Assembly (NCBI GenBank): GCA_964393485.1
Contig: CAYMTW010000002.1
Coordinates: forward strand, 9,140 to 73,139
Direction of reading: 5' to 3'
DNA: 64,000 nt
DNA from: an uncultured Melioribacter sp.
Lineage (GTDB): Bacteria > Bacteroidota > Ignavibacteria > Kapaibacteriales > Kapaibacteriaceae
Part shown: piece after piece, positions 5,323 to 60,070 of the stretch
How positions within the stretch are numbered: the first letter of the stretch is position 1
How the letters are laid out: every line of letters begins with the position of its first letter
Notes under the pieces: generated by a model
Told to the model about the DNA's origin: nothing
Seen by the model: only the letters and a program-made list of their open reading frames with translations
Databases searched by the model: none
Program-made: the position numbers and the translations under genes

Positions 5323-6621
5323 ATGATCCAACGCTATACCCGGCCCGACATGGGCGCCATCTGGTCTGACGAAAACAAGTATCGCATCTGGCTGGAGATC
5401 GAAATCCTGGCCTGTGAGGCACAGGCCGAACTCGGCGTGATACCAAAGGATGCCGTAGCGGAGATCCGCAGCAAGGCCTCGTTCAATGTTGAGCGGATCC
5501 TCGAGATCGAAGAGATCACCAAGCATGACGTGATCGCGTTCACAACCAACGTTGCTGAATACGTTGGGCCCGCATCGCGGTTTATCCATCTGGGGATGAC
5601 CTCGAGCGATGTGCTCGATACGTGTCTGGCCGTGCAGCTCAAGCAGGCCGGTGTGCTGATCCTCGAGGACCTGCGCGCTTTGCAGTCCATCCTGCGACGT
5701 CGCGCACTGGAGTTCAAGAATACCGTCTGCATCGGACGCTCGCATGGCATTCATGCTGAGCCTACAACCTTCGGGTTGAAGCTTGCCCTCTGGCACGAAG
5801 AATGCCGTCGTAGCATTACGCGGATGGAGCATGCGCTTTCGACTATCAGTGTGGGCATGATCTCGGGTGCTGTGGGCACCTTTGAGCACCTCTCTCCTGC
5901 CGTCGAAGAGTACGTCTGCGAAAAGCTTGGACTGCAGCCGGCTCCGGTGAGCACACAGGTCATCCAACGTGATCGGCATGCCGAGTATCTGACAACGCTA
6001 GCCATCATTGGTGCGTTTCTCGAGAAGATCGCCGTCGAAGTGCGTCACCTACAACGTACGGAGGTCCTCGAAGCGGAAGAGTACTTCTCTCCGGGCCAGA
6101 AGGGCTCGTCGGCTATGCCCCACAAGCGAAATCCAATTGTCAGCGAGCGCATCTGCGGCCTGGCACGCTTGCTGCGCGGCAACGCCATGGCGGCCATTGA
6201 GAATAATGCCCTTTGGCATGAGCGCGACATCTCGCACAGCTCTGTCGAACGGGTGATCTGTCCGGATTCGACCATCACCATCGACTACATGCTGCACCTT
6301 GCAACGGGACTTGTGGATCGACTGGTGGTCTACCCGGATAACATGCAGCGTAACCTTGAGCTTACCAGCGGATTGCCCTACTCGCAATCCGTGATGCTGG
6401 CCCTTGTGCGAAAGGGTATCACGCGTGAGGATGCCTACCGCATGGTGCAGCGCAATGCCATGCGGACCTGGGAGACACGTCTGCCGCTGCGTCAGACGCT
6501 TGCCGAGGATGACGAGCTGATGGCACAAATGTCAGCAGACGAACTCGATGCCATCTTTGATCCTAACCGCATGCTTAAGAACGTCGATACGATTTTCCAT
6601 CGGTGTGGGCTGAGTGAATGA
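5323..6621 (+). CDS. purB: Adenylosuccinate lyase
   Basis: A 432-aa ORF beginning [41 protein letters not shown], with the fumarate-lyase signature region [11 protein letters not shown]. Confidence 0.9.
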
Positions 6622-8120
6622 CACGCCGACTTGTGGTGGTCTCAGCCGCGATTGTCGCAGCTGTGGGTATCGGACAGCTCGTGGCAAACGTCGAAGATGA
6701 AGGAAAGCTTCTGGCTGAACGCTACTGTGCATCGTGCCACCGTATGCCGCTTCCAGAACATCTCGACAGATCCACGTGGCTGACAAAGGTCTTTCCGATG
6801 ATGCGCGAGTATCTGGGACTCGACACCAAGACAGACCGCGAGCTTCTGCCCCATGATCTGCAGGCAATGTATCCATCGACACCGTCGATGACTGAGGATG
6901 AGTGGTTCAAGATTGCAAACTGGTACGTTGATCATGCACCGGACACTCTGCCAGCTGCGCCAGACGTGGCGATCGAAGGAGAATCCCCGCTGTTCAGGCC
7001 TCTTCGCATCGCTTCCGAGGACGTCAATCCGATGACGATCATGGTGCGCTTCGATACGGTCTCGCAGAGGATCGTTACGTCTGACGCACTATTGGGGAAG
7101 TTGTCCATTTACGGCGTCACAGGCACACTGCAGAAGACCATCGATGTTGGTGGACCCGTGAGCTCGGTCGCGCTTCGTGGTTCTACGTGGTATGTGACCG
7201 ATATGGGCAAGCTGCTGCCACACGATTCTGCGGTGGGCGGTCTCGTGACAATCACGTGGAACGGCGATCAGTTCACAACAACGCGGATCATCGACTCGTT
7301 ACGTCGGCCGACGCACGTCAGCGTTGATGACCTCAATGGAGATGGCCGAGACGACCTGTTGGTGTGTGAATATGGAAACCTTCTCGGACGCCTCGGCTGG
7401 TTTGAGAAAACCGCACGGCGTTGGAGATATCATGAATTGGTCTCGCAGCCCGGTGCGATTCGCACGGAGATCCGAGATGTTAACGGCGACGGTCGGAAGG
7501 ATATCATCGTCCTCATGGCCCAGGCTCGTGAGGGACTTTTTGTTCACGTCAATCGTGGCAAGGGGCGTTTTGAGATCCAAGAACTTCTGACCTTTCCCCC
7601 AAGCTACGGTTCGTCTTCATTCGGCTTTGCCGATGTCGATTCCGATGGACGTGATGAGCTTTTGGTGACCACGGGAGATAACGGCGATTATCTCATGCCA
7701 CCCTACAAGCCCTATCACGGGGTGTACGTATGCTCGCTGGATAAGTCGGGTCGAGTGATTCAGAAGGAGCTCCGTCGGCTTGATGGAGCATATGGCGCAA
7801 TGGTGCGTGATTTTGATTTAGATGGACAGCAGGATCTTCTGGCGTACAGCTACTTTCCGAGACTTGAGCGTGGATCTCACGACTTCATCCGTCTCGAGAC
7901 GTCGGCCTTTACACAGCGCATGAAAACATGGACGCTGCCCATGGCCGACCAGGGGCGCTGGTTGCCGAGCGACCTAGCCGATGTTGACGGTGACGGTGAC
8001 GTCGATGTTGTGCTCGGCAATGTGTCGATCGGTCCCGGACGCATCACCGATGATCAGTCAGCCGGATGGCGTGAAGGACGCCTCAGAGCGCTCATTCTCG
8101 TAAACACGACGCGCGACTAG
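6618..8120 (+). CDS. Exported cytochrome-c-motif / FG-GAP (VCBS-like) repeat protein
   Basis: N-terminal hydrophobic segment, then the CASCH (CxxCH) haem-binding motif. At least four calcium-binding-type FG-GAP repeat cores follow ([49 protein letters not shown]). ATGA overlap with purB. Confidence 0.6.
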
Positions 8121-10195
8121 AGTCCGGATGCTCGCTGAAGCCACAGTGGCACCGTGAGGAGCGATGCATCGCTGATAAAGACCACAAGGACAAGACCGTC
8201 AATGTCTGGATCGATCGTGAATGTAAGCCCCCTGCCATCGATCGCACGGTAGTGAGCAAGGGGGCGACCCAGCACATCGCTGATGACAACCTCATCGGAC
8301 ATGGTTGTGATCGAGCGACCTTTCATGCTGAAAGTAGGTGTGTCGGAAAACATGCGCCGGCGTCCTGCTTGCATGCACAACCCGTCGAGCGTGAATTGCC
8401 CGTGTCGTCGTTGCACAGTTATCGAAGCATCTGTTAGTCGAACGCTGTCAATGCTCAGCTGCACGGATGCTGAGTCACCAAGCACCGCCCGCAGCTGATC
8501 GCGTCGATACGTGCTGGTGGCCATAGTCAGCCTGAATGGAAACTGCATACGGGTTCGTCCACGGCTTACCGTCGAGGGAGCGCCCAAGGGCATGAGGACA
8601 TTCGGGTGCGTCGAGACATAGGCGACACCCTCGATCGTGCGCGTTGGAGTTGATGTCGATCGAACATTCAAGTAGATGTCTACACTATCGCCAGGACGTG
8701 CTCGTACTTCGCCAATGCTGACGATCAGAGCCGGTGATGACGGTATCACACGCACATAGATACTGTCGATCCGAGAACACCCATCATCGCCCGTCAGAAG
8801 TGCGCGATACCATCTTCCGGTCTCCACCGGGTGTGTTTGGAGTGAATCTCCAATGACGGTCCCGACGTCGTCTAGCCACTGTGTGCGGATAGCCCCTTCG
8901 GACCAAAGTGTTGCGTGTGAGCCAAACGCTATGACAGTGTCAGAGCTATGCAGGAGCATTCGATTAATGCGTCCTTCAACCGGCTTCCACGGCGAAATGG
9001 ATGACGTCAACGTGCCATCGGCCCCTGGCTCGGCACCGTGACGTATGATGCTATCTGAGGAGAACTGTGTGTGGGCATCGCCGGCCGATCCGCCCGTTCG
9101 TTCCACACGAACCGCTGCAGGCAATGGAACTGTTGAGACGACGCTGCCGCCTCCCCCACCGCCACCCGGACCGCAGACAAAGAGCGTTGAATGGGTCGAG
9201 CCGCCATGTCCACCCCGCACGCTGATGAGTCCGGCGCCCTCAATGCTCATGGCATCGATCATGATAACCCCTGCACCGCCCCCTCCGCCACCGGCGTCAT
9301 GGCCAGCATCGTGGCCGTTGGTTCCATCTGCGCTGATGGCGCTTGAACGAGCTAGGCGAAGATGACGAGCTCGGATGATGATTGCGCCGCCACCGCGTCC
9401 ACCACGTCCAGCATCCAGGTCATTTCCATGACCGGATGCTCCTGATGAGCCAAAGATGATTCGTCTACCATCATCGGGTGGACGTCCGGACAGTCCTGTT
9501 GATGCGCCTGCGTTGGCAAAGGCCGTTGAAGATCTTCCGCCCCCTCCACCATTTCCTATCGAAGCTCCTCCCGCACCGCCAGAGTTATGCGGCACTCCGG
9601 CGGGGGTCGCATCAAGCCATGACAACGCGAGGTCTGTGCGTTGTGCGCTGGTGCATGCACCAGCGCCAGCCCCCGGACTGTGCCTGATGCGCATGCTTGC
9701 TTCCGGCGAGATCGTGTCGCCTGTGTTCCACGCCCGCAAGGGCTGGAAATACCCCATGCCAGTTGCCGTTACCGACGCATCGATGGTCAGCGTATCGTCC
9801 GACCAGATGGCAACGATGCCGCCATCATAGCCGTCCCATGGTTGCGGCACGATGCGCTGGTCGATGATCCCTGCACGGGGCTCCATAGCCCGAGTGACCT
9901 GCAGATGTTCTGGCCAAACAATGTCGTCCGGGAGTCTGAATCGAAAGTAAAGTCGGTTGCCAATAATCGTGTCGATGACATTCCACGACCATGAACCGAC
10001 TGCGTGCGGATCGTCGGTGGTACGATGCTGACACACGGGAACGTGCACAACAACTCGATTCTGGGACTGAAAGAGTTCCGGCCGTCGAACGCGCAGAGAG
10101 GAGGTGCACGCATCGGCATCCCATGCCCAGGAACTGCGCACGATTACAGGTGAATCCTCTGCCGTGAGAAGTGTCAGAAGGAGTAGCAGCGCCAT
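8117..10195 (-). CDS. Secreted glycine-rich repeat protein, cluster member 4 of 4. It is the most distal gene of the minus-strand cluster and may carry a C-terminal sorting-like beta domain.
   Basis: A 692-aa ORF with a hydrophobic N-terminus (MALLLLLTLLTA) and a Trp-rich N-domain. Long poly-Gly runs follow (GGGGGRSS, GHDAGHDAGGGGGGAG, GPGGGGGGGS). Its start overlaps the upstream gene by 22 nt. No competing ORF on either strand exceeds 130 aa. Confidence 0.55.
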   Translation of the reverse strand: MALLLLLTLLTAEDSPVIVRSSWAWDADACTSSLRVRRPELFQSQNRVVVHVPVCQHRTTDDPHAVGSWSWNVIDTIIGNRLYFRFRLPDDIVWPEHLQVTRAMEPRAGIIDQRIVPQPWDGYDGGIVAIWSDDTLTIDASVTATGMGYFQPLRAWNTGDTISPEASMRIRHSPGAGAGACTSAQRTDLALSWLDATPAGVPHNSGGAGGASIGNGGGGGRSSTAFANAGASTGLSGRPPDDGRRIIFGSSGASGHGNDLDAGRGGRGGGAIIIRARHLRLARSSAISADGTNGHDAGHDAGGGGGGAGVIMIDAMSIEGAGLISVRGGHGGSTHSTLFVCGPGGGGGGGSVVSTVPLPAAVRVERTGGSAGDAHTQFSSDSIIRHGAEPGADGTLTSSISPWKPVEGRINRMLLHSSDTVIAFGSHATLWSEGAIRTQWLDDVGTVIGDSLQTHPVETGRWYRALLTGDDGCSRIDSIYVRVIPSSPALIVSIGEVRARPGDSVDIYLNVRSTSTPTRTIEGVAYVSTHPNVLMPLGAPSTVSRGRTRMQFPFRLTMATSTYRRDQLRAVLGDSASVQLSIDSVRLTDASITVQRRHGQFTLDGLCMQAGRRRMFSDTPTFSMKGRSITTMSDEVVISDVLGRPLAHYRAIDGRGLTFTIDPDIDGLVLVVFISDASLLTVPLWLQRASGL

Positions 10196-11613
10196 CGCTG
10201 GATCTCCTGATCGTACCAGAGTTCGATCATGTCATCGATCTCCAGTGTGAGCGTCTGTCCATTCTTGATTCGAATGCGGTCGGCCGCATCGGCTGCAGGG
10301 TGTTCATGAACGAGCTCGACGTGGCCCTGCGTTACGAGAAGTGTTAGGACTCGATCAGATGCATCCGAACGGATGCCACTGATGGTACTACCGCTGGCGT
10401 CACCGACAAGTCTGACAACCGTTCCACCGGCAATGGTCAGTAGCGTGGCCTCCCCAGGGGGAAGCTGCATGTTGGGTGTTGGATTGAGGGCCAGTCCGCT
10501 AAGACGCGTCATGCCGCTGGACATGAAGTGATGCGCAAAGGTCCGATTACGTGTGATCACATCGCGAAATGTCGATGTCTGAAATGGTATCGGTAGCAGA
10601 GGACGAACGCCTCCCAGGATCACATCGCCACCCGCACACAATAGGGCGATCTGACCTGTGTCGGTGAGGAACCCGCCACCAATTGCCACCGTCACTCCAG
10701 AAGATGCAGCACTGGCAGTCCCGTAGACGCCGAGCGTAGTTCCGGCGTTTGCCGTCGCGGTGTTCTCGCCACGTCCGAACACACCTACCGAGAATGTTTG
10801 CGTACCTCCGATTCCACCACGCTGCACAGAGCCAAGCACTCCGGTGATCGTGTCAGCCGCGATGCCAGAGTTTGTAGCGGCGTGACCCCGTACGCCGATG
10901 CGCTCTGCAATTGGCAGCGTTTCATAGGTCGATGACTGCGAAACTCCGAGCATGCCCATGCCACCGGTATTGGCCCTGGCGATAACACCAACGTGTTGTG
11001 CGCCCGAGGCCACAACCTCGATCCCGCGCCGTGGCGGAGTGGTTCCTCCAATATCGAGCGCAACGCCGCTGCCGGAGGTGAGAGCGTTGTAGCGAATTCC
11101 CGTTCCTCCCGTGATGTCGATGCCTGTGCCTAAGCTTGGCCGGCCGGACCCTGCTGGTCCGCCGAGGCGCACTCCTGTTCCCAATCCGTTTGATTGACTA
11201 GACAGGACGATCCCGGCATCGTTGATTCCGGAGGCTCCGATGTCGCGTACGAGCAACCCCGTGCTCGCTGTCGTTGCGTCGAGTGAGATCGTCAGCCCCC
11301 TGCCGCCCTGCCCAGCGATCGATCCAATGCGCATCAGCTCCAGCGGAGCTGCGCCGATACCCAGACCAATGGTGACCGGACCGAGGAGCCAGGTATTCCC
11401 GGACTGACCGATCTCGAGTGCACGCGTCTGTGACGCCCCCGTTACGATGCGCAGCGGGAGTGCATTTGACGAGCGATTGGAGATAACCAGCGGCAATGGT
11501 GAGGCATTGTCGATGCGACTGGTGGTAAGCATCTGTGCGTTGATGTGCGGAGCAAACACAGCAAGCCAGGGTGCCAGCCACAACAGGACGGCATGAGGGA
11601 GACGATGAAGCAT
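10174..11613 (-). CDS. Secreted glycine/threonine-rich beta-helix-like repeat protein, cluster member 3 of 4
   Basis: A 479-aa ORF with a clear signal peptide (MLHRLPHAVLLWLAPWLAVFAPHINAQ). The body is long degenerate G/S/T/A-rich repeats (GxGxxxGxxG... IGASGINDAGIVL, GTGIDITGGTGIRYNAL). It has a C-terminal tail related to the neighbouring genes. Confidence 0.55.
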   Translation of the reverse strand: MLHRLPHAVLLWLAPWLAVFAPHINAQMLTTSRIDNASPLPLVISNRSSNALPLRIVTGASQTRALEIGQSGNTWLLGPVTIGLGIGAAPLELMRIGSIAGQGGRGLTISLDATTASTGLLVRDIGASGINDAGIVLSSQSNGLGTGVRLGGPAGSGRPSLGTGIDITGGTGIRYNALTSGSGVALDIGGTTPPRRGIEVVASGAQHVGVIARANTGGMGMLGVSQSSTYETLPIAERIGVRGHAATNSGIAADTITGVLGSVQRGGIGGTQTFSVGVFGRGENTATANAGTTLGVYGTASAASSGVTVAIGGGFLTDTGQIALLCAGGDVILGGVRPLLPIPFQTSTFRDVITRNRTFAHHFMSSGMTRLSGLALNPTPNMQLPPGEATLLTIAGGTVVRLVGDASGSTISGIRSDASDRVLTLLVTQGHVELVHEHPAADAADRIRIKNGQTLTLEIDDMIELWYDQEIQRWRCYSF

Positions 11614-11629
11614 GGTTGTATCAGGGGGC

Positions 11630-12529
11630 TTACATCGGTGGGAGGATCATCCACGCAATGCGATCGGTTGCCGCAAGGGGTGTCGACGTCTCGACGGTGA
11701 AGGTATCGGCTGCAGCGTCCACCGTCGTCACGGATAGTGAGATCGTCGTACCAGCTGCGTTGATCATTGTGACGATCGGAATCGCACCGGTGGGAATGTC
11801 TGCTCCAGCGGTGATCGTGTGTATGTGGTTGCCAGGCGTTGGGATAAAGAGTCCACGTGCAACTTCGGCGATCGCACTGCGCCAGCTCATCACTCCAGTA
11901 GTCGTTGATGACAGTACCATGCCTGCCGCAGCGGGGGCCTGCTCGGGAAGCGTGTAGGTAACATCCCCTGCCTGCGTGGACGCTCGAAAGGCCGTGTAGT
12001 TTGTTCCGGATGCACTTGGTTCAGCAAATCGAAGCTCAGTGGCTGCTCCTGTGTTTGACAGAAGGATCGTACGGGCAAGATCGATCGGAGCTTTGGGTGC
12101 TGAGGTGCCGAATCCGATCCAGCCCTGGCTGGGGCCAGCCACCCCGACTACGCGTATTGCCTCAGTGGCGTTGGCAGCGATGACAAGGTCCTGAGCGTTT
12201 CTTGTGCCCAGATATTGCTGTCCTGGCGCGATACCTCCGGAACGTACATCCGATCCGGACAAACTCCAGAAGTCGGTGGTACTCCAGCCAAGTGCAGCCG
12301 TGCTGCCGGTCACCGACTGGATTGTCATAACCTGTCCCGACTCGCCGATCGTGGTGGGCAACATGAGTGAATAAGACGTCACTCCGGTGGAGGGAATCGT
12401 TAGTCCGATGGTCGAAGGCTGAGCGTTGCGCAGTTGTAGCGTTCCGGTCGTGAGACTTTGTGCCTGCAGGTGAAGTGAAAGTGCCTCCAGTGTCATGATG
12501 GACAAAAGGAGGTGAATCAATGGGCGCAT
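11630..12529 (-). CDS. Secreted repeat protein, cluster member 2 of 4. Start placed at the internal ATG that begins the signal peptide; the leftmost alternative start is 12586.
   Basis: Signal peptide MRPLIHLLLSIMTLEALSLHLQAQ followed by S/T/G-rich beta-strand-like repeats. The C-terminal tail ...TDRIAWMILPPM parallels ...DERIEWSITP of the upstream gene. Confidence 0.5.
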   Translation of the reverse strand: MRPLIHLLLSIMTLEALSLHLQAQSLTTGTLQLRNAQPSTIGLTIPSTGVTSYSLMLPTTIGESGQVMTIQSVTGSTAALGWSTTDFWSLSGSDVRSGGIAPGQQYLGTRNAQDLVIAANATEAIRVVGVAGPSQGWIGFGTSAPKAPIDLARTILLSNTGAATELRFAEPSASGTNYTAFRASTQAGDVTYTLPEQAPAAAGMVLSSTTTGVMSWRSAIAEVARGLFIPTPGNHIHTITAGADIPTGAIPIVTMINAAGTTISLSVTTVDAAADTFTVETSTPLAATDRIAWMILPPM

Positions 12530-12567
12530 AGAAACCTCGACGTATAGGTGAATGAAATGAAGGGTTA

Positions 12568-13314
12568 TCAGGGAGTAATGGACCATTCGATACGCTCATC
12601 CGGCAACAGCGGCGCTGATACTGTGAAGATGAGCTCGTTACTACCGGTATCTATATCAAGCTGCACCGCAAGCGTCGTTGTGGGCGAGACACTGCGAAAG
12701 GTTACGCGCGCAGTGGTCGTCAGTACCGTCGATGGTCGAACCCGGTAGGTGGCCGCGAGCCCATCTCCGGCTATACTGCCGCGCTCGGGGGCAAGCGGAG
12801 CCGCCGAAATCGTAAGCGTCGTGCCATCACGCTGCACACGGATGCCGTTGGAACCACGCAGTGACACGGGCCCCGAGAGCTCATTGAGCGACGTCACCAA
12901 CCCGGTCGCTCTCGGGTCAAGCCGTGCGGCGACATCTGCATAACCGGCATGTAGTGCTGATGTCAGAGGTATGATCTCTTGGCGCGGCTTGCGCTCGCTC
13001 TCGCTTTCCAGCGTCAGGCCGATGAAGGCCCGGACCCCTCGCAGCATCGTGTCGGCAAGTGCTACGGTGCGACCAAGCACGATCTCACTGCGTCCAGCAA
13101 TAATCTCGGCAACAACCGATTCCTCCCAAAGAGGAGCGGTAGTGAAGGGATCATCGTACCAGCGAACGACGAGTCGATGCAGACCGTCATCTGGTACGGG
13201 GCTGCCAAACACTGCCGTCACAGTCACCTGCAGTGGCGCTTGAGCTCGGCATGTCAGATGTGCAAGACACACGCTGACAAGAAGGATCATCTGTTGTATC
13301 GAAGACGTTGTCAT
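12568..13314 (-). CDS. Secreted protein, cluster member 1 of 4 (first gene)
   Basis: A 248-aa ORF with a signal peptide (MILLVSVCLAHLTCRAQA) and a C-terminal ...LPDERIEWSITP tail shared with cluster member 2. Confidence 0.5.
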   Translation of the reverse strand: MTTSSIQQMILLVSVCLAHLTCRAQAPLQVTVTAVFGSPVPDDGLHRLVVRWYDDPFTTAPLWEESVVAEIIAGRSEIVLGRTVALADTMLRGVRAFIGLTLESESERKPRQEIIPLTSALHAGYADVAARLDPRATGLVTSLNELSGPVSLRGSNGIRVQRDGTTLTISAAPLAPERGSIAGDGLAATYRVRPSTVLTTTARVTFRSVSPTTTLAVQLDIDTGSNELIFTVSAPLLPDERIEWSITP

Positions 13315-13332: not shown

Positions 13333-13677
13333 TCAGGAAAAACGTGACGCGCTTCGAGAAAAAAAGTTGACGAGCACCATGGACAGGGCTGTGATCACAA
13401 GTCCACCGACCTCACGTTCAATCTCGCCATCCCACCAATGACCGCTTGTCTGAAGGGACAGCATAAAAGCCCATAGACCGTATCCAAATGAGAGGAGCAA
13501 TGAAAGGCTGCGGATGATCCTGGTCACTGAGCGAATCATGCTACCAAGGCAAACAAACGCGGCCAGGCCATAGGCCATAATCCAGATGCCAGCATCGACG
13601 TCGTTGAACTGCACTGAAACGAACAGGCAGAATATCACGGCCAGACAGACACTGATGACATTGGAGATTCGATTCAT
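13333..13677 (-). CDS. Small integral membrane protein (3-4 predicted TM helices)
   Basis: A 114-aa ORF of hydrophobic helices (VISVCLAVIFCLFVSV, IWIMAYGLAAFVCLGSMI, LVITALSMVLVNFF). ATGA overlap with the gene upstream of it. Confidence 0.4.
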   Translation of the reverse strand: MNRISNVISVCLAVIFCLFVSVQFNDVDAGIWIMAYGLAAFVCLGSMIRSVTRIIRSLSLLLSFGYGLWAFMLSLQTSGHWWDGEIEREVGGLVITALSMVLVNFFSRSASRFS

Positions 13678-14473: not shown

Positions 14474-15469
14474 TCAGGACTCTACCGCAGAGGACTCTTC
14501 AAACAGGGCTTCAACAAATGCCACACTGTCGAAGGTCTGAAGGTCATCGATCCGCTCACCGACGCCAATGTAGCGCACTGGGATGCTCATATTATCGGCG
14601 ATGGCGATCACTGCCCCGCCCTTGGCCGTACCATCGAGCTTAGTTAAAACAATTCCCGTGATCGGTGCGACCTTGGTGAACTCCTTGGCCTGCTGCAGCG
14701 CGTTCTGGCCGGTAGTGGCATCAAGCGCAAGGAAGATGTCATGGGGCGCGTTGGGATGGATCTTCTTCATGACCCGACCGATCTTCTCGAGTTCCTGCAT
14801 CAGTCCCTGCTTGTTATGCAAGCGTCCCGCCGTGTCAATGATCACAACATCCGTCGAGCGTGCCTTGGCTGCTGTGAGCGTATCATACGCCACGGCTGCT
14901 GGGTCTGCCCCATGTTGTTGTTGCACGATATCCACTCCGGCTCGTTGGGCCCAGACTTCAAGCTGTTCGTTGGCAGCTGCCCGGAAGGTATCAGCCGCTC
15001 CAATGAGCACAGACTTACCGGCACGCTTATAGTTATGAGCCAGCTTGCCGATGGTTGTTGTCTTACCCACGCCGTTGACGCCGATCAGCATGATGACATG
15101 GGGCTTATCAGTCTCGTCAATGGAAAACGTAGCATCAGCGGCCGCTGTCGGTGACTCCAGTAGGAGCGACGCGATTTCGTCTTTCAGCAGCTCTACGATG
15201 GCGTCAGAGTTCGTGACGTTGTCGTTGCGTACGCGCTGCTTGAGGCGTGCAATGATCTTCTCGCTGGTAGCCACGCCAATATCTGCTGTGATGAGGATCT
15301 CTTCGATCTCGCCCAGGAGAGCATCATCTATCGTACGGCCGCTTAGGAGCGCGCGGAGCTTGCCCACAAAGGACGACCGTGTCTTGGAAAGTCCTTCCTT
15401 TAGTCGATCGAAGGAAAGAGCGTCGGCGACCCCGGTGAGTCGTTGCTTGATCTTATCGAAGAATCCCAT
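14474..15469 (-). CDS. ftsY: Signal recognition particle receptor FtsY. Start set at the internal MGFFDKIKQ; the ORF track extends to 15535.
   Basis: Canonical FtsY N-terminus MGFFDKIKQRLTG and the SRP-GTPase G1 motif LIGVNGVGKTTTIGKLA. The NG domain and DTAGR motif are present. Confidence 0.85.
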   Translation of the reverse strand: MGFFDKIKQRLTGVADALSFDRLKEGLSKTRSSFVGKLRALLSGRTIDDALLGEIEEILITADIGVATSEKIIARLKQRVRNDNVTNSDAIVELLKDEIASLLLESPTAAADATFSIDETDKPHVIMLIGVNGVGKTTTIGKLAHNYKRAGKSVLIGAADTFRAAANEQLEVWAQRAGVDIVQQQHGADPAAVAYDTLTAAKARSTDVVIIDTAGRLHNKQGLMQELEKIGRVMKKIHPNAPHDIFLALDATTGQNALQQAKEFTKVAPITGIVLTKLDGTAKGGAVIAIADNMSIPVRYIGVGERIDDLQTFDSVAFVEALFEESSAVES

Positions 15470-15989
15470 ACATCCTTTTGCCGTATTGCCACAAAGATAC
15501 CGCCATGGCAGCTGTGGATAGAGCCATGAGAGCACTAACCGCCGGGTGGGTCGAGGTGATGAGCAATGAGAGAATACCGCTAAGGGCTATACTGGTCACG
15601 GCAATCTTTCCGCTCATCAGTGACGGAAGCACAAGCTTATGCCGGAGCTTGAGCCACCATCCGAAACCAAGGATGATGACATCCCGGGCGATGATCACCG
15701 AGGCGAACCAGCCAGGTATGATCTGCTTGTAGAGCATGACCAGCATCACAGCACCGACAAGAATCTTGTCGGCAATAGGATCGATGATCATCCCCCACTC
15801 ACTGACGGTTCCCGTGCGTCGTGCAACAAACCCATCGAGCCAGTCGGTGATCGCTGCGGCGATACACCACCTGAACGCCGTTACGTTTTCTCCAGCAAGC
15901 AGCAGATAAACGATCGGGATCGTCATCACACCGCGCAGAGCGGAGATCAGATTCGATGCCGTAAAAATGGTCTTCAGTGGTGTCTTCAT
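15453..15989 (-). CDS. pgsA: CDP-diacylglycerol--glycerol-3-phosphate 3-phosphatidyltransferase (CDP-alcohol phosphatidyltransferase family)
   Basis: The start is at the internal MKTPLKTIF. The CDP-OH phosphotransferase signature DxxDGxxAR...G...D.xxD is present (DWLDGFVARRTGTVSEWGMIIDPIADK). The ORF track's 283-aa N-terminal extension would overlap the symporter gene and is rejected. Confidence 0.75.
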   Translation of the reverse strand: MKTPLKTIFTASNLISALRGVMTIPIVYLLLAGENVTAFRWCIAAAITDWLDGFVARRTGTVSEWGMIIDPIADKILVGAVMLVMLYKQIIPGWFASVIIARDVIILGFGWWLKLRHKLVLPSLMSGKIAVTSIALSGILSLLITSTHPAVSALMALSTAAMAVSLWQYGKRMYGILR

Positions 15990-17323
15990 GATCGGTATGT
16001 ACCCTTGAGCCAGAGAGCGCTGTGCAACATTAGCGATGTTCCGATTCCGACGAGTGCTGGTTGCGCTGTTTGCGAGATCAATGCCCAGGTAGCGACGGTC
16101 GCCGGGACGAGGATTGCAATGAGAATCGTTGACGTGAAGTGGGGCGCATGGCGCGTATGGCTCAGTACTGTGGGCACGAGCAGTGCGCTGACAACGATCG
16201 ATGCAGCTCCGAAGATCAGATCGATGATGCTTGGTACCGCTATGGCGATCAGAGCTCCGAGTATAATCGTCAGAGCAAGTCCTAATCGGTAGCGTCCGCC
16301 CCATGCGGTGATCTCGGGACGCAATGCCGGTAGAACATCATCAGCAAGGGTCGTTGCACTAGCAAGGGCATAACCGTTGAGCGTTGACGATACAGCTGCA
16401 ATGATCCCAGCCAGTACAAGCCCCCTGCCCCATGGGGGCAGGATGATCTGAGAGAGTGCGAGATAGGATGTTGAAATGTCGGATGAAGCCACGTGCTGCG
16501 CGGCAGCAAGACCGCAGAGGAGTTGCAGGACGTCGAACACCACCCAGCAGGCTACACTCCAGAGAATGGCCCTGCGGGCTATGGATTCGTTTCTGGCCGA
16601 GGCCGTGCGCACATAGATCGTTGGATCGATAAACGTCTGCATGGCAATGATCCACCAGCTGGCAATTCCGGCCCAACCGAGAGTTCCGGGAACGTTCAGC
16701 AGTTCAGTACGGAGAAGTGAACCATCAGTGTGGGACTGTCCTGGATAGGTCATGGCGGCAACGGTCAGCACCAGCATCCCTCCGTACATGAGGACGACTT
16801 GAATGACATTCGCATAGGCATCGCTGCGCAACCCTCCGACGGCCACATAGGCAACCGAGATAACCGTACCGACAAGGATGGCAGAGGTAAGGGGCATGCC
16901 CGTCAGATGAACGAGAACGTAGCCGAGCATGAGCTGATAGGATGCCGGGACCGTGATCACAAGGAGCAGAGCTGCTGCCAGGCGACGCGCTGCAGGACCA
17001 TGAACGTGGCCGAGTTGTTCCGGGATGGAGGCCGCCATGCCTGAGCGAATCCGTCGTGAAAGCCAACCAGCATAGGCAACGGCCACGAGGTAATATGGCA
17101 CGCCAAAACACAGGATGAAGACAACACCATAGCGCATCACAAACTCACCGGAGGCGAGCACGGCCCCATACCACGTCGCTACGAGCGTGGCTACCAGCAA
17201 TGGAAGACTCATCGAACGTTCTGCTAGCAGGAAGTCAGACCGCCCCTTGCGGCTGCCAACGGCACCGGCGATGTGGACGGCCACGAGACTGCCGATCACA
17301 ATCATGATTTCGGTAACGTTCAT
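15986..17323 (-). CDS. Sodium:solute symporter family transporter
   Basis: A 445-aa polytopic membrane protein with about 12-13 TM helices. It has an SSF-like N-terminus (GRSDFLLAERSMSLPLLVATLVATWYGAVLASGEF). Confidence 0.65.
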   Translation of the reverse strand: MNVTEIMIVIGSLVAVHIAGAVGSRKGRSDFLLAERSMSLPLLVATLVATWYGAVLASGEFVMRYGVVFILCFGVPYYLVAVAYAGWLSRRIRSGMAASIPEQLGHVHGPAARRLAAALLLVITVPASYQLMLGYVLVHLTGMPLTSAILVGTVISVAYVAVGGLRSDAYANVIQVVLMYGGMLVLTVAAMTYPGQSHTDGSLLRTELLNVPGTLGWAGIASWWIIAMQTFIDPTIYVRTASARNESIARRAILWSVACWVVFDVLQLLCGLAAAQHVASSDISTSYLALSQIILPPWGRGLVLAGIIAAVSSTLNGYALASATTLADDVLPALRPEITAWGGRYRLGLALTIILGALIAIAVPSIIDLIFGAASIVVSALLVPTVLSHTRHAPHFTSTILIAILVPATVATWALISQTAQPALVGIGTSLMLHSALWLKGTYRS

Positions 17324-30282: not shown

Positions 30283-30327
30283 GCCCCCTGAAACGCCTTT
30301 TTGGGTATGTCAGGGGGCTGTTTTTTT
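30283..30327 (+). terminator. Putative rho-independent terminator after pepF
   Basis: An 8-bp GC stem (GCCCCCTG 30283-30290 pairing with CAGGGGGC 30311-30318) is followed by TGTTTTTTT. The 20-nt loop is long for an intrinsic terminator. Confidence 0.5.
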
Positions 30328-30388
30328 GATAGCTTTGCCGGTATCGCAATTGGCAATTAGTCTCCATTCACATCATGCGGTTTCGCAT

Positions 30389-33300
30389 ATGAACAATTTT
30401 CAACGGTTTTTCGCTTCCGTGCTCTGCAGCCTCGTGCTCGCCACGACGGTCATGCTCGGCCAGTCGCAGCCACTTACCACCTGGTCCTTGAGCAGCGGGA
30501 ACTACACCTTTACAGACTGGCTCAACACCAATCTTGCAGGTTCCTATCCGAATGCCATGGTGTTCCATACGGTCGCCGAAATCGACATGCCGTCCGATGC
30601 GCCTGTCGTTGGTGACTTCAACTGCGCCTATAACCTTACGAGCGGTGCACGCATCAATGGTTTAGGTACGGGTGGACTTGGCTTCATCAACACTGGAACG
30701 ACGCTCTGTAACTGTCAGTTTGTCGGCGCTGCAGTGCTCTCATTGAACACTGTTGGTCGGGCACAGATCGGTGTGACATGGACATCGTCGGTCAACAGCT
30801 CCGGATCGCGCCCTTATGCGCTGCGCTTGCAGTACCGTCTCAGCACGGTTGGTGCATGGATCAACGTGGTCAACAATAACGTTCCTGTAGAATATGTTGC
30901 TCCGCTTAACACGTCGGGGATCGCCACTCAGCGTATCATCACAACGACACTTCCAACAGTCTGCGAGAACCAGCCAACACTCCAACTCCGGTGGGTGTAT
31001 TTCCAGGCGCCGGTGTTTTCTTCGGGAGGTCGTCCGGGTATCACGTTCGATGATCTGACGGTCTCGTCGCAGTCGACAGTCGGAACAGCGACTAATCTCG
31101 CTATCGAGAACATCGTTCCGTCCGTACCTTCACAAAACACTCCATTCGCTCTTCGTGTCCGTGCTGTTGATGCGCTGGGAGCTGCGAAGAACCTCACAAC
31201 CTCGACCACTGTGCAGGTGCAGGTGAACTCAGGAACAGGTTTTCTGACCGGAACAACGGCTGCAACAATCCCTGCCGGCAGCAGCTTTGTTGACCTAACA
31301 AGCTTGTCGTACACAGCTGCTGAAACGGGTGTACAGTTGCGTGCCGTATCAATTTCGGGTCAAATTCTAACTCAGGGCCTCTCACCGGTACTGACCGTTA
31401 ACGGTCCGCCATCATATGCTCTTGTGACTGGTGCGCAGACGACCGGATATGTCAACGTGCCGTTCAATCCGCTAACCGTGACGGTCTATCGTGCCGATAA
31501 CACCGTCGATCAGAATTACGCCTCGAATATCACCATCAGTCGTCTGTCCGGCCCGGGTTTGGTTACGGGCACGACAACTGTCCAGGCATCTGCCGGCGTT
31601 GCCATTTTCAATAACGTGGCTGTGAGTGCAGCAGGTACATACCAGTTGCTTATTTCCGCACCTGGGGTACCATCGATCACGCTGCCATTTGCAACTGCTG
31701 CGACTACGCCAAGCCTCATCACTGATATTGTCCCTCAGTTCATCAACGCGCGCACTGCATCCGGCACGTGTAATTCGTCAGTGTCGGCATTCCCAATCCC
31801 CGTGTATGCTCGTGTAACGTTCACCAATTTGGCACCCAACACCGTGTATCGGTACAACACCGGACTTGCACTCGATCAAGTTGTGACGTCAACCGGTGGC
31901 GGATTCAATGTCCACTACAATGCCAACGACAACTCCTATTTCTACGCCGCTGGAAAGTCATTGACCAATCCTGGTGAGTTTTCTACCTTTTCCACTCTTC
32001 CTGGTCAGACGTCGAAGACGATCTGGATCAACCTTGTTGCTTCGACGAATGCGGCATTTCAAGAGCTGGGAACGGCCTACTGGCGTGTCTCGCTGGCAGA
32101 CAATGATGGAAATCTCATCAATCGTTATCAGCTAACACAAACATCAACGCCACTTCGTACAGGTGCGTTGACGACGCAGGCAACCGGAATCGCAGACGAT
32201 AACTCGCAGTTGACGGAGCGCAATTTCGTTTTGCTGTATGATAATGCTGCTGGCACAGGTCGCCCACTTTCTATCGCTCTCATCCAGCGTCAAAACACCT
32301 TGGTTGCCGGAGCTGAGACATTCTATGCCACCCGGCAGTCACTGCCTACGTCATGGGCCACGTTCATTCCGAATACGCTGGCAACGGGTGTTCGCCGCAT
32401 TGAAGAGCGCGATGCCATCACTGGCAATATTGTAAATGCCATCACCTCAGTTGACGGCCGCTGGAACAATGTTCAGACGAACCCGTCTGATCTTGTCGCC
32501 TATCCTGCCGGTCCAGGTGGATTTTCGGCACCGATCATCATGCAGACCCCGCGCATCACGGTCTCAGCTCCAGTGTTCGGCGACACACTCTGTGCCGGCT
32601 CGACAGCCGTCGCCCGCTTCGTCGCTCGTGGCATGGCCAATGTAGACGTACAGTTCTCATCGAATAACGGAGCTTCATGGCAATCCATGGGCATCGTTCC
32701 TGCCACTTCAACGGCTGTGAACTGGACTGTTCCAGATATTGAGTTTGCAGGTCAGTGCTTTGTTCGCGTCGTCGGTGTGGATCGTCCCGAAATCAGCGCA
32801 ACATCGCAAATGTTTGCCGTCGCTTCGGCCGTTCGCGTTGTCTCACAACCAGACTCACGTAATCTGTGTGTTGGCGATCGCCTATCACTTGTTGCCGTTA
32901 CCGCTGGCGCTGTTCGTAACTACCAGTGGTTCAAGAACGACGTTGCTATCAACGGAGCAAACGGTCCGTTGCTCGTCATTGACCGCGCTCAGTTCAACAC
33001 AGCCGGTGTTTATCGCTGTGAGCTCTGGGGCTTTGGTCAGTGTGGCAACAGCCGTACAAATGACATCCATGTTCGCGTGGCACGCCCAACAGTGATTGTC
33101 AATCAGACACGCAATGCCCCGGTCAAGATCGGTGGTACGGCGTTCCTTACTGTAGAAGCAGAAGTCCCGAACGAAGCCATCTCCTACCAGTGGTACAAGG
33201 GCCAAACGGCTCTTGCCGATAATGGACGCATTGTCGGTACAAGCTCGAATCGTCTCGAGATCCGCGGTGTGACCAGCAACGACCTTGGGACAGATTATTA

Positions 33301-34450
33301 CTGCGTTGTCACAGGTGTTTGTGGTAGTGCCACATCACGTCAAGCACGTATTCTGACGTCGGGCGTGTTTGTTGATTTCGCCTCAAACAACGTCAGCGTT
33401 TGTGATGGTCAGAAGACCGTGATTTCAGGCAACGCCTATGCAAACCCTGCTTCTGGTGCTCTGCGCCTGCAGTGGTGGTACAAGGGTGCACCGCTCGCTG
33501 ACGGAGGCCGTTACAATGGTGTTCAGACAAACACTCTGACCATTGATCCTGCAACGACGCAGGACGTTGGTGAGTACACGCTTTATGCTGAGCTTGCTGA
33601 TAACAGCAACGTCAATTCAAGCGGAGCTGTGAATCTTGTTGTTGGTGGCGGAACGACGATCACCACACAGCCGGTTAGCACAACCGTCTGCGAAGGCGCT
33701 TCGTTTACCCTCTCGGTTGCTGTTGCCGGCACGGGCACTGCGACGTACCAGTGGACCTTTGACGGAAGTGATCTGGCTGGACAGAATTCTCCTGCGCTGA
33801 CGCTCAGTGCTACAAAGGCTCGTGGCGGTTCGTATGCTGTGCGCATCGTCACGTCCTGCGGAACAGTCACGTCAAACAGCGCAACGATTACTGTTCGCGA
33901 TGCAACCAAGATCACCCAGCAGCCACCAGCAACGGTTGCTGCAACGGTTGGACAGCCACTGAACATCACACTCTCAGCTACAGGATCTGGCACGGTTCAG
34001 TATCAGTGGTTCAAGGATGGAACGTCACTTGCGGGTGAAGTCACTCCAGCCTACGCCAAGGCAGCCTACGCGCTGACAGACGCCGGTAAGTACTGGTGCC
34101 GTGTCCGCTCTGAGTGCGGCGACGTATTCTCGGATACGACCACGGTAACAACCCGTCCGGGTGTTGTTGGTGTGGATGACGAAGACGCTGTGGTTGCCGG
34201 CTATTCGGTTTCGCCGAATCCTGGTTCAGAAGCTATGAGCGCTCGTCTGGTTCTTGCTGCACCTTCGAATGTCGTGATGACGCTTGTCAACCTTACCGGC
34301 GAAACGGTTATCGCGATCGCTGATGCCCGCCTTGCTGCCGGTGAGTATGCCCTGCCGTTCAGCGTTGCGGACCTTGCCGCTGGCTCGTATCAGCTCATCG
34401 CGATGATCAACGGTCAGGCTCAGACTCGTACCGTCGTCGTGGTCAAGTAA
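30389..34450 (+). CDS. Giant secreted cell-surface protein with tandem Ig-like domains and a C-terminal Por/T9SS sorting domain
   Basis: The ATG at 30389 begins MNNFQRFFASVLCSLVLATTVMLGQ (signal peptide). At least five I-set-like Ig repeats with the YQW[FY]K...G.Y.C core occur at about 90-aa spacing. The final ~80 aa (SVSPNPGSEAMSARLVLAAP...GSYQLIAMINGQAQTRTVVVVK) match the T9SS C-terminal-domain pattern. Confidence 0.65.
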   Translation: MNNFQRFFASVLCSLVLATTVMLGQSQPLTTWSLSSGNYTFTDWLNTNLAGSYPNAMVFHTVAEIDMPSDAPVVGDFNCAYNLTSGARINGLGTGGLGFINTGTTLCNCQFVGAAVLSLNTVGRAQIGVTWTSSVNSSGSRPYALRLQYRLSTVGAWINVVNNNVPVEYVAPLNTSGIATQRIITTTLPTVCENQPTLQLRWVYFQAPVFSSGGRPGITFDDLTVSSQSTVGTATNLAIENIVPSVPSQNTPFALRVRAVDALGAAKNLTTSTTVQVQVNSGTGFLTGTTAATIPAGSSFVDLTSLSYTAAETGVQLRAVSISGQILTQGLSPVLTVNGPPSYALVTGAQTTGYVNVPFNPLTVTVYRADNTVDQNYASNITISRLSGPGLVTGTTTVQASAGVAIFNNVAVSAAGTYQLLISAPGVPSITLPFATAATTPSLITDIVPQFINARTASGTCNSSVSAFPIPVYARVTFTNLAPNTVYRYNTGLALDQVVTSTGGGFNVHYNANDNSYFYAAGKSLTNPGEFSTFSTLPGQTSKTIWINLVASTNAAFQELGTAYWRVSLADNDGNLINRYQLTQTSTPLRTGALTTQATGIADDNSQLTERNFVLLYDNAAGTGRPLSIALIQRQNTLVAGAETFYATRQSLPTSWATFIPNTLATGVRRIEERDAITGNIVNAITSVDGRWNNVQTNPSDLVAYPAGPGGFSAPIIMQTPRITVSAPVFGDTLCAGSTAVARFVARGMANVDVQFSSNNGASWQSMGIVPATSTAVNWTVPDIEFAGQCFVRVVGVDRPEISATSQMFAVASAVRVVSQPDSRNLCVGDRLSLVAVTAGAVRNYQWFKNDVAINGANGPLLVIDRAQFNTAGVYRCELWGFGQCGNSRTNDIHVRVARPTVIVNQTRNAPVKIGGTAFLTVEAEVPNEAISYQWYKGQTALADNGRIVGTSSNRLEIRGVTSNDLGTDYYCVVTGVCGSATSRQARILTSGVFVDFASNNVSVCDGQKTVISGNAYANPASGALRLQWWYKGAPLADGGRYNGVQTNTLTIDPATTQDVGEYTLYAELADNSNVNSSGAVNLVVGGGTTITTQPVSTTVCEGASFTLSVAVAGTGTATYQWTFDGSDLAGQNSPALTLSATKARGGSYAVRIVTSCGTVTSNSATITVRDATKITQQPPATVAATVGQPLNITLSATGSGTVQYQWFKDGTSLAGEVTPAYAKAAYALTDAGKYWCRVRSECGDVFSDTTTVTTRPGVVGVDDEDAVVAGYSVSPNPGSEAMSARLVLAAPSNVVMTLVNLTGETVIAIADARLAAGEYALPFSVADLAAGSYQLIAMINGQAQTRTVVVVK

Positions 34451-37500: not shown

Positions 37501-38452
37501 GCGTATGGTGACGGTCACCAACACGGGTACAGCCGACGTGGTTTTGGAAGCTTTGGAGGGCGTTACAGCCCCATTCAGGATCGCAACGCAGCGTCCAGCA
37601 TTGCCCGCGCGTCTCACTCCTGGTCAGAAAGCCGAGATCGACATCGAGTACGTGTTTGCCGACTATGACCGCCGTGATACCATCCGAATGGTCAGTCGCA
37701 CGTCAGGAAGTTGCCCCGACACCACCACAGAAGTGCTTACGGGATCGACGGTCGCGAAAGGCACCGTAACGGGCCTTTCCATTGTGGCACCGATCGATGC
37801 TCGGGCCTTTGCCGGTGAGGCGGTAACGCTGCCGTTTACGCTAACCTCCATTGCTCCGCTGGACTCGCTCGATCTTCGACAGATGACGATCGACCTGGCC
37901 TACGATCCGCGCCTGATGCGTCCTGACGCGGTTACCTCGGGTCTGCCCGGCGCATCGGCATCCATCCAGGAGCTCGTGCCCGGCCGTGCAACTGTTACCA
38001 TCACCTCAACACGTCCGATCGTGGCAGTGAATCCTTTCTTTAGCCTTCGTGCCCGGACCTATGTTGCTGAGCCGGACGTGACGATTCTTGATGTAGATAC
38101 GGCCATTGCCCAGGGGACGATTATCACTGGTCGTGATGGACAGCTGACGGTTCTGCGGGAGTGTGATATCACTGCCGGCTCCGTGTCGATTAAGCGTCCT
38201 GTTGTCTTCCGTGTGCTACGTCAGGATAACAGCGTGCTGCAGATCGAGTTCTCATCAGTGACGTCTGATCTCGTCGATATCATGGTGGCCTCACTGACCG
38301 GTCACGTCACGACCATGCAGGTCAAGCCGTCGTTGGCCGATGAGCTGCATCGCCTTGACGTTTCGATCGATGACTTGCCATCTGGCGCCTATGTGTTACA
38401 CTATCAGCATGGCCGGCACGCACGGTCTATTCCGTTCACGATTGTCCGCTAA
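34562..38452 (+). CDS. Giant secreted protein carrying a lamin-tail-like domain, Ig-like domains, ASH/choice-of-anchor-D-like repeats and a T9SS C-terminal sorting domain
   Basis: Signal peptide MINSLRSLLIVCISVVVFIPSHAQ. The N-terminal segment is LTD-like (EWTELLVVADNLNAVGW). Two Ig-like units follow (LYEWTVNG, SYEWLRDG). At least five repeats follow of the form [VI]DFGT...C....V.I.N.G...[VI] (ASH-like). The C-terminal ~80 aa (VLQIEFSSVTSDLVDIMVASLTGHV...GAYVLHYQHG) is T9SS-CTD-like. Confidence 0.65.
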   Translation: MINSLRSLLIVCISVVVFIPSHAQEMVVSEYLNMVDPTLEWTELLVVADNLNAVGWIVTDNNTGQITRQGGPQFKDVPLWRNLRAGTIIVLWHRAFPAGYVQDEDPADGYLELSARDARYFTTYMFAPGVDNDMNINQTGELVELMRSDLTHVHALGFNKPTGPSYNNIPMPKVNVDSANISNSRSVRVSGRTLGAYGFGVTKDSAVVGFNDSRGLPNRWDLPRTAIGLVNINHWFWRETREPKWSGAPAISLLSQSANSNTIEWTALDDPNPQDSTTGYLILRDTLGFAGFPSGVIRDGATIAKGARIGTSTVIDIRPTKLGRRLVDSTNILCGMTYTYRVYGYRYRRDDLLSVTDDTTARGRQYTDGRWCESAPITKSNPTKPLIQASRLQICPGDTVTLTTTTTNAVLYEWTVNGLSVPVGGTTRIVVRATGEYRLVIKGADGCSAMSDPVVISALPAPSVEITPTGLQTICPGDSVKITAITSAASYEWLRDGVAIPGATQNTYVARLEGDYQVRIATAAGCPGISAALRLRHQNVKARMSPNLVDFGTIGQCRADTTVDVEIINEGLATITVTNATFPPGFALVSPPPGFQVAAGKRQSVRLVFSPSGPGTASGAASFLVQPCSTPIPFTVRGQRTAVSVALNKPGVDFGTYTACPTGNIRPDSSFCVTNSGTEAIVIGVPRVDPPFYLLTDFPKPVTIAPGANFCISIMYRPLGADLDRGVIQTIGFPYSSASCQDTLRARVQGASYRPVLVADEPSVDVGVVLTCAKRVDTVVSLTNQSLVPVTVSNIVGQDVTYTGGTVTIPAKTSRLFSISLTPSVATGAFSIIAKAVLLPCNDSVPVQFDGVMLNASYTQDRDEIDFGTILLCERSSASASFSISARGLSGLRSRLTSISVRSPFVVSVTAGQSFRDSLRVNVTFTPPGQGAFIDTIIYSIDPCSVARNVIVRGVAVDPKRSTSITSTDFGMVTAGSSAQRMVTVTNTGTADVVLEALEGVTAPFRIATQRPALPARLTPGQKAEIDIEYVFADYDRRDTIRMVSRTSGSCPDTTTEVLTGSTVAKGTVTGLSIVAPIDARAFAGEAVTLPFTLTSIAPLDSLDLRQMTIDLAYDPRLMRPDAVTSGLPGASASIQELVPGRATVTITSTRPIVAVNPFFSLRARTYVAEPDVTILDVDTAIAQGTIITGRDGQLTVLRECDITAGSVSIKRPVVFRVLRQDNSVLQIEFSSVTSDLVDIMVASLTGHVTTMQVKPSLADELHRLDVSIDDLPSGAYVLHYQHGRHARSIPFTIVR

Positions 38453-60033: not shown

Positions 60034-60070
60034 TTTCTCACTTGTAAAACGCCCGCAAACCTACGAAACC

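Follow-up and report, generated by a model that had tools for sequence, protein, structure and literature searches.

A conserved four-gene block of Kapabacteria encoding candidate cell-envelope fibre proteins built from tail-fibre and surface-protein modules

The described systems closest to the four genes considered here are phage tail fibres and tailspikes, cellular proteins carrying the Pfam domain PTL_trimer (PF26696), type A cargo of the type IX secretion system (T9SS) such as RgpB of Porphyromonas gingivalis, AgmC of Myxococcus xanthus (NCBIfam NF047640) and the cohesins of cellulosomes. Fibres of phages and tailocins are put together in the cytoplasm, a typical T9SS adhesin is one large cargo protein, and AgmC reportedly has a role in gliding, according to a transposon screen of 2003. 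The four genes, designated A, B, C and D, lie on the minus strand of a 64-kb stretch (64,000 nucleotides; the window hereafter) of contig CAYMTW010000002.1 from an uncultured Melioribacter sp.; their products are annotated only as hypothetical proteins, and a literature search found nothing on them. The reading we favour, and to which we give about an even chance, is that A to D form a chromosomally fixed, lineage-wide Kapabacteria operon for a set of cell-envelope fibre or adhesin proteins, put together from modules of tail fibres and tailspikes and modules of Bacteroidota surface proteins.

A first-pass annotation of the window, made from the sequence alone, had described four consecutive, tightly packed or overlapping minus-strand genes, an arrangement borne out by the coordinates of the open reading frames (ORFs), by the gaps between them and by their orthologs:

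12568-13314, minus strand: gene A, 248 amino acids (ORF list); signal peptide, N-terminal beta domain, conserved VTG-VTS-NE-G motif region and a C-terminal domain common to B
11630-12529, minus strand: gene B, 299 amino acids; start set by 100% identity to database protein P0090
10174-11613, minus strand: gene C, 479 amino acids (ORF list)
8117-10195, minus strand: gene D, 692 amino acids (ORF list); P0038 is 100% identical
13333-13677, minus strand: small membrane protein of the TMEM220 family (Pfam PF15071, E 1e-13), 18 nucleotides upstream of A

The longest ORF at the B locus (11630-12586) would encode 318 amino acids, the real start lying at 12529. Intergenic gaps amount to 18 nucleotides between the TMEM220 gene and A, about 38 between A and B and 16 between B and C, and the 5' end of D lies within C, with an overlap of 22 nucleotides. 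The same tight spacing continues upstream on the same strand through ftsY, a gene for a 162-amino-acid protein, one for a 103-amino-acid membrane protein and the TMEM220-family gene; downstream of D, an FG-GAP/cytochrome-c-like gene and then purB are met in convergent orientation. The GC content of the A-D block is that of its surroundings. The added claim that competing ORFs are absent was loosely put, as overlapping ORFs of up to 145 amino acids are present on both strands, which is expected at a GC content of 58%.

The case for a functional unit rests first on conservation. Contigs carrying distant C homologs, together with a scan of one genome per species, yielded 31 loci, of which 28 are genome loci of Kapabacteria type and three are metagenome loci. 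Before the exhaustive profile search described below, C homologs had been found only in metagenome-assembled genomes (MAGs) labelled Candidatus Kapabacteria or Ignavibacteria. Wherever a locus extends far enough to cover the genes, the order A-B-C-D is identical and the flanks are constant: ftsY, the 162-amino-acid protein and a small membrane protein, sometimes joined by TMEM220, lie on one side, and the convergent FG-GAP gene and purB on the opposite side. Identity of the orthologs to the window proteins ranges from 25 to 90% across loci. Mean column identity is highest for B (61%), followed by C (49%), A (44%) and D (32%), the alignments of A, C and D comprising 21 orthologs, 24 sequences and 23 orthologs, respectively. 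A-B-C-D is kept as a unit at a housekeeping position throughout the lineage; fixed order and position across the lineage rule out chance ORFs and make a prophage very unlikely. The first-pass annotation had suggested looking for conservation of the block together with the two small membrane genes upstream, and here the outcome is mixed. A to D are always kept together; TMEM220 lies next to A in 17 loci but not at all in nine, and is thus a frequent but non-obligatory companion, and the other small membrane gene tracks ftsY. Where genes have been inserted, TMEM220 remains beside A-D and the other gene beside ftsY. One such insertion, of two TPR-guanylate-cyclase genes and an aldo-keto reductase gene between the ftsY-side small membrane gene and TMEM220-A-B-C-D (locus L001, 2132-6473), marks where the conserved block begins. 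We note that L004, L011, L015, L017, L019 and L022 show perfect Kapabacteria-type synteny and 40-91% identity under discordant GenBank titles (Patescibacteria, Chitinophaga pinensis, Didemnitutus, Hyphomicrobiales or Bradyrhizobiaceae), probably because the MAG records were wrongly binned or labelled.

The second line of evidence is modular homology. A, B and C have no direct match in Pfam (E<=1 in the case of C) or PHROGs, nor does A have one in NCBIfam, and searches of the PDB with the profiles of the A, B and C families returned nothing meaningful. At this level the earlier statement that the proteins belong to no recognisable family holds for A, B and C; it fails for D, which matches NF047640, and for C and B once the searches are taken deeper. 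The modules on which this turns are the following:

10459-11316, minus strand: central glycine-rich module of C (about residues 100-385), delimited by profile search
10177-10488, minus strand: C-terminal beta-sandwich of C, about 100 amino acids, ending LWYDQEIQRWR; the matched stretches of its relatives coincide with PF25692
11861-12271, minus strand: central fibre module of B (W-L-G...YLGT...IG-GT-P...ELRFAEPSA...TYTLP...SW), delimited by hhalign

C consists of a signal peptide ending INA/QM, a glycine-rich centre and the C-terminal beta-sandwich. An exhaustive search with its profile retrieved 4136 proteins at E<=1e-3, of which 460 reach E<=1e-10. The central module recurs as a discrete internal module of larger proteins (P0197-P0206, P0211 and P0217; E 1e-43 to 1e-67), among them P0197, which is found in a cellular context and carries PTL_trimer. 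The C-terminal 95 residues or so correspond to a widespread repeat domain, present in two to eight copies in hundreds of proteins. In P0207, P0200, P0209, P0315 and P0316 the C-type stretches coincide with PF25692 (Phage_depo_C), the Pfam family described as 'phage depolymerase C-terminal beta-sandwich', to which C itself has no direct match; the respective limits are 202-274 against 203-267 in P0207, 440-526 against 442-522 in P0200 and 639-724 against 644-722 in P0209. Judged by these coincident stretches, the C-terminal domain of C probably belongs with Phage_depo_C. In structural comparison by Foldseek, C drew weak matches (none at E<=1e-3, the best at 4e-3), headed by phage tailspikes, fibre proteins of T4 and a fibre-chaperone complex of Mu type. 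The AlphaFold2 (AF2) monomer model of C has a mean predicted local distance difference test score (pLDDT) of 58, with residues 139-306 below 50 (30-40) and residues 380-479 around 90.

B is the most conserved of the four proteins and has a signal peptide that ends LQA/QS. Its profile retrieved about 80 ortholog clusters of Kapabacteria type and then distant matches carrying Peptidase_S74, Gly_rich_2, Mtd_N, Por_Secre_tail or PTL_trimer. By hhalign, the central module of B matches the PTL_trimer protein P0161 with a probability of 99.4% and P0170, which bears Peptidase_S74 and Por_Secre_tail, with a probability of 96.7%, and it corresponds to the shaft region of these tail-fibre-like proteins. 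It is also found in P0166, a Gly_rich_2 protein encoded on a phage-like contig. The overlap of B with the S74-bearing proteins P0167, P0170 and P0179 is confined to the central module, and a Pfam scan found no C-terminal Peptidase_S74 (PF13884) chaperone domain in B.

When the four family hidden Markov models (HMMs) were run against all retrieved proteins, B and C modules were found together in single chains (P0212, P0248, P0279, P0315 and P0316), and C-type C-terminal domains were found fused to a D-type glycine-rich domain in P0223 and P0284. The modules of B, C and D are, on this homology, drawn from one toolkit that serves phage tail fibres as well as surface proteins of cells, which provides independent evidence that the four genes work together. 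The cellular PTL_trimer proteins P0161, P0197 and P0212 share B- and/or C-type modules with the block (E 1e-22 to 1e-67) and differ from it in that each joins, in one long chain, modules that Kapabacteria encode in separate genes. In locus L040 (6252-13201), beside the gene for P0212, a fused B+C-module protein carrying PTL_trimer, lies a gene for a protein of at least 3903 amino acids that runs off the locus and may be a giant surface protein.

Such kinship with phage proteins raises the question of whether A to D are domesticated tail-fibre genes serving a tailocin or contractile injection system encoded elsewhere, or the remnant of a decayed prophage. In its favour are the module-level homology to tail fibre and depolymerase proteins (the C sandwich occurring as Phage_depo_C in relatives, the B module lying upstream of Peptidase_S74), the weak resemblance of C to tailspikes and fibres, and the location of some relatives in phage-like gene strings (P0166, beside an SU10 adaptor and a lysozyme; P0196; and P0284, whose neighbours are two pectate-lyase-fold proteins and an M23 peptidase). 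Other relatives occupy ordinary cellular neighbourhoods (P0161, P0197, P0212), some of them beside Por_Secre_tail proteins. What speaks against a tailocin or prophage origin of the present locus is, first, that A, B and C carry conserved Sec signal peptides, at odds with assembly in the cytoplasm, lack an S74 domain and have no direct Pfam match, and that D has an end resembling a T9SS C-terminal domain (CTD; see below); second, that neither the 64-kb window nor the flanks of the 31 loci contain sheath, tube, baseplate, portal or lysis genes; third, that the housekeeping position between ftsY and purB is fixed lineage-wide and the GC content is that of the surroundings; and fourth, that a tblastn search of 50,697 phage genomes with C and D gave no match. 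A scan of viral contigs recovered one relative of the B module and zero relatives of C. A functional phage tail fibre or prophage gene was rejected on these grounds, a prophage remnant is effectively excluded, and we consider it very improbable that the genes furnish fibres to an injection system encoded elsewhere. The first-pass annotation had named clear similarity to a well-characterised family, such as phage tail-fibre proteins with further phage genes close by, among the outcomes that would overturn it. This is only half the case here: the modules are indeed of tail-fibre type, whereas the locus is chromosomal, lineage-wide, signal-peptide-bearing and devoid of phage genes.

The AF2 model of D (mean pLDDT 81.6) comprises a beta-rich N-domain, a glycine-rich region with two long hairpins, an immunoglobulin (Ig)-like domain, a sandwich of nine strands and, at the end, a domain of seven; the glycine-rich region is confidently placed and mostly without regular secondary structure. 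Poly-glycine blocks and a beta-rich C-terminus, both noted in the first reading of the sequence, are seen in the protein and its model alike.

9080-10006, minus strand: AgmC_N-type region of D (residues 64-372), beta-rich N-domain and poly-glycine blocks (NCBIfam NF047640)
residues ~405-483 of D, minus strand: Ig-like domain preceding the cohesin-like sandwich
8387-8731, minus strand: cohesin-like beta-sandwich of D (residues ~489-603)
8120-8338, minus strand: C-terminal seven-strand domain of D, about 70 amino acids, resembling a T9SS type A CTD (AF2 and hhalign)

Residues 64-372 align to positions 103-412 of the 412-position NF047640 profile (E 1.5e-36, 126.3 bits), which matches all 23 D orthologs (23/23; best 2.6e-59). 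The equivalog cut-off of 275 bits is not reached, so that D contains a homologous domain and is no equivalog of AgmC. D and AgmC share this beta-rich, poly-glycine domain type; they differ in phylum, in score (126 against 275 bits) and in the C-terminal half, which in D is made of the Ig-like, cohesin-like and CTD-like domains. Gly_rich_2 (PF21722), one of the Pfam families of phage tail fibre and tailspike proteins, matches one of the 23 D orthologs (3.7e-5) and does not match the window D at E<=1. PKD, CHU_C and Por_Secre_tail domains accompany the glycine-rich domain in its distant homologs, which come from Bacteroidota. As to the cohesin-like sandwich, Pfam Cohesin (PF00963) matches a single ortholog out of 23 at E 0.07; it stands apart from cellulosomal cohesins by its low identity to them (13-23%), and the nine-strand jelly-roll is a common fold. 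D orthologs with extra Ig-like inserts are encoded in L026 (6542-9016, 824 amino acids) and L030 (2789-5734, 981 amino acids), and in L017 (9298-11257) the D ortholog is split into two ORFs by a frameshift or an assembly error.

The beta-rich terminal segment of D occupies residues 620-692, the last 73 residues at the extreme C-terminus, and in the AF2 model forms seven strands (622-625, 628-631, 635-639, 645-650, 657-660, 667-674 and 679-686) with a pLDDT of about 80-85. A seven-strand (3+4) Ig-like beta-sandwich is the architecture of T9SS CTDs (PMC11285876). Aligned with nine Pfam-verified CTDs, the C-terminus of D scores an hhalign probability of 92.6% (E 4.6e-7); two D orthologs match an HMM built from these sequences (mini-CTD HMM) at 1e-6; and a PDB search with the D-family profile weakly matched the RgpB CTD and two other solved CTDs (5hfs of RgpB, E 0.015; 8glj_D, E 0.28). 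The loose resemblance to a T9SS sorting domain noticed at first reading has thus gained substance, and D is a probable T9SS cargo by homology, sharing with RgpB a seven-strand domain of about 70 amino acids at the extreme C-terminus. The organism itself appears to use T9SS-type sorting, to judge from the clear CTD (mini-CTD HMM E 7e-9, hhalign 96%) of the protein encoded at 30326-34450. The latter is the first of two tandem plus-strand genes (30326-34450 and 34562-38452) for giant secreted proteins of 1374 and 1296 amino acids with Ig_3/I-set and HYDIN/ASH-type Ig-like repeats, neither of which reaches Pfam PF18962 at E<=1e-3. An 875-amino-acid S8 subtilase (59402-62029, plus strand) has a C-terminus that looks CTD-like by eye and scores weakly against the CTD profile.

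The four proteins had been described at first as mutually related, that is, as a duplicated and diversified family. This is not the case: a single duplicated family was rejected, since profile-profile comparison dismisses every pair except A and B. For these two, hhalign of the family profiles detects a homologous C-terminal domain of about 85 amino acids (probability 96.3%, E 1.7e-9), and the A-family HMM matches essentially every B ortholog at 1e-5 to 1e-10.

12571-12825, minus strand: C-terminal domain of A, about 85 amino acids (residues 164-248), found by hhalign to the B C-terminus
11639-11899, minus strand: C-terminal domain of B, homologous to that of A (hhalign and A-family HMM)

The similar tails of A (DERIEWSITP) and B (TDRIAWMILPPM), singled out in the first-pass annotation, therefore reflect true homology. 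The proposed kinship of the C ending (DRIRI...ELWYD..RW) with this tail is not significant (E 0.07-0.5), even with an alignment of 247 instances, and the A/B domain shows no relation to T9SS CTDs or to the C-terminus of C or D. No significant profile-profile match was obtained between the family alignments of C and D, A and C, A and D, or B and D; that of B and C reaches a probability of 37% and is confined to the signal peptide and N-terminus, and BLASTP among the four proteins gave only marginal, composition-driven matches. Glycine-rich repeat bodies had also been ascribed to all four proteins. Glycine accounts for 15% of residues in C and 13% in D, as against 6% in A and 8% in B, so that C and D alone are glycine-rich, and internal repeats in self-comparisons were not significant. 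The idea that the motifs SVPYAL and VTS-NE-G of A typify other Bacteroidota fibre proteins found no support in the sequences compared.

The scarcity of relatedness within the block lends itself to another explanation, namely that A to D are four independent surface adhesins or S-layer-like coat proteins that are merely co-transcribed and form no heteromeric fibre. Only A and B share a domain, D-like proteins elsewhere are encoded by stand-alone genes, and all four proteins are rich in T/S/A/G and poor in lysine, as are many surface proteins. The lysine counts of A to D are 1, 1, 1 and 2 (0.2-0.4%, against a window mean of 2.5%, with arginine at normal levels), and the orthologs in L001-L031 are similarly poor (0.5-1.0% on average); we note, however, that a few other proteins of the window are equally lysine-poor, which makes this a tendency rather than a unique mark of A-D. 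Independent adhesins would not readily account for the strict conservation of order, spacing and C/D overlap in about 30 genomes, down to 25-40% identity, or for the recurrence of the modules as single-chain fusions, and scans of Pfam and NCBIfam found no S-layer-type domains (SLH etc.) that would speak for a coat. We therefore regard independent adhesins as improbable; were they the answer, the block would be an ordinary set of hypothetical surface proteins. Of the surface-fibre, adhesin or S-layer-like system suggested by the first-pass annotation, a co-oriented, exported, beta-rich block of fibre/adhesin type is retained, and the S-layer part is left without specific support.

With regard to export, A, B and C each have a hydrophobic N-terminus followed by a conserved Ala-Gln (...CRA/QA, ...LQA/QS and ...INA/QM, respectively), the glutamine being invariant in A and in the B orthologs (Q25) and nearly invariant in C (Q27). 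This pattern is that of the Bacteroidetes Q-rule for signal peptidase I substrates (PMC5837995, PMC10653852). The earlier claim of signal peptides on all four proteins accordingly stands for A, B and C. D starts in this genome with MALLLLLTLLTAEDS, and its distant orthologs have classical signal peptides, several of them ending in Gln.

A number of observations weigh against the favoured reading. The signal of the window D is atypical, without a basic n-region. A, B and C contain no lipobox, T9SS-like CTD or other recognisable outer-membrane targeting feature, which sets the block apart from known T9SS cargo and makes the surface exposure of three of the four proteins conjectural. The CTD of D is missed by curated models (PF18962 matches none of 23 orthologs at E<=1, TIGR04183 one of 23 at 0.0069), and the window D itself reaches only E 0.7 with the mini-CTD HMM; since other CTD-looking proteins of the window also miss PF18962, CTDs in this lineage appear to be divergent. 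The D versions of L019, L022, L024 and L027 (599-619 amino acids) have a shortened C-terminus and no Ig-like domain. No dockerin-like partner for the cohesin-like fold of D was found among A-C. Finally, the trimeric state proposed below for A-C is deduced from module homology to trimeric fibre proteins and from the failure of AF2.

A rival reading is that the genes share an operon and D alone reaches the surface, A, B and C remaining in the periplasm, where they would either build a structure, there or close to the outer membrane, or help D to fold and assemble. A periplasmic role of A-C is a serious rival, if an unlikely one, and independent adhesins or a tailocin-donor role are less likely. 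It would fit Sec signal peptides on proteins with no known device for reaching the outer membrane, as well as the housekeeping neighbourhood beside ftsY and small membrane proteins. It sits less well with the other occurrences of the B and C modules, which are in extracellular fibre, tailspike and surface proteins, some with Por_Secre_tail or Peptidase_S74; and the fusion of C-type with D-type domains in single chains (P0223, P0284) argues that C and D work in the same compartment.

Returning to a cell-envelope fibre or adhesin set, its working might be as follows. D would leave the cell through the T9SS by means of its C-terminal domain and be presented at the surface. A, B and C would fold as trimeric fibre-like proteins, and a trimeric fold would explain the failure of the monomeric AF2 model on the centre of C. 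They would associate with one another or with D, the C-terminal domain common to A and B possibly serving as a common docking or assembly module. B, the most conserved of the four, may form the structural core, the Phage_depo_C-like sandwich of C a distal ligand-binding tip, and D, the most variable and the one subject to domain gain and loss, the exposed, fast-evolving part. The likely role would be attachment to surfaces, polymers or other cells, and possibly surface-associated motility. The proteins are, on homology grounds, not without family; they are mosaics of widespread modules in a new arrangement, namely four split genes, three of which encode no CTD.

A bolder version, which we consider improbable, has the block encode a heteromeric surface appendage of a kind not seen before, made of parts derived from phage tail fibres, in which Sec-exported, CTD-less trimers of A-C would dock on D, e.g. 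via the A/B C-terminal domain and the cohesin-like module of D, and cross the outer membrane piggy-back through the T9SS; this lineage-universal fibre might be a gliding or adhesion organelle related to the AgmC system of myxobacteria. Kapabacteria are a class common in bioreactors, lakes and sediments. If the favoured reading is true, the block would represent a lineage-universal surface structure of this uncultured Bacteroidota-related class and a clear-cut case of phage tail-fibre modules taken over for good by a Sec/T9SS-exported cellular envelope structure; it would raise the question of whether CTD-less partners can be exported with a CTD-bearing protein, and it would join several little-understood domain families, AgmC_N/Gly_rich_2, Phage_depo_C, PTL_trimer and the A/B C-terminal domain, in one functional toolkit.

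As to the surroundings of the block, a scan for promoters and terminators gave counts no higher than in shuffled controls. The convergent neighbour of D in most loci, which in the window is a plus-strand gene at 6618-8120, encodes a 500-amino-acid protein that has FG-GAP/VCBS repeats and, in its N-terminal part, a CxxCH motif like that of cytochrome c, and its stop codon overlaps that of D (8117-8120). Elsewhere in the window, the longest ORF of a CDP-alcohol phosphatidyltransferase (15453-16304, minus strand) overlaps the upstream ORF of an SSF-family transporter (15986-17323, minus strand) by ~320 nucleotides; the phosphatidyltransferase gene probably begins further downstream, as it does in L001-L003, whose product has ~176 amino acids.

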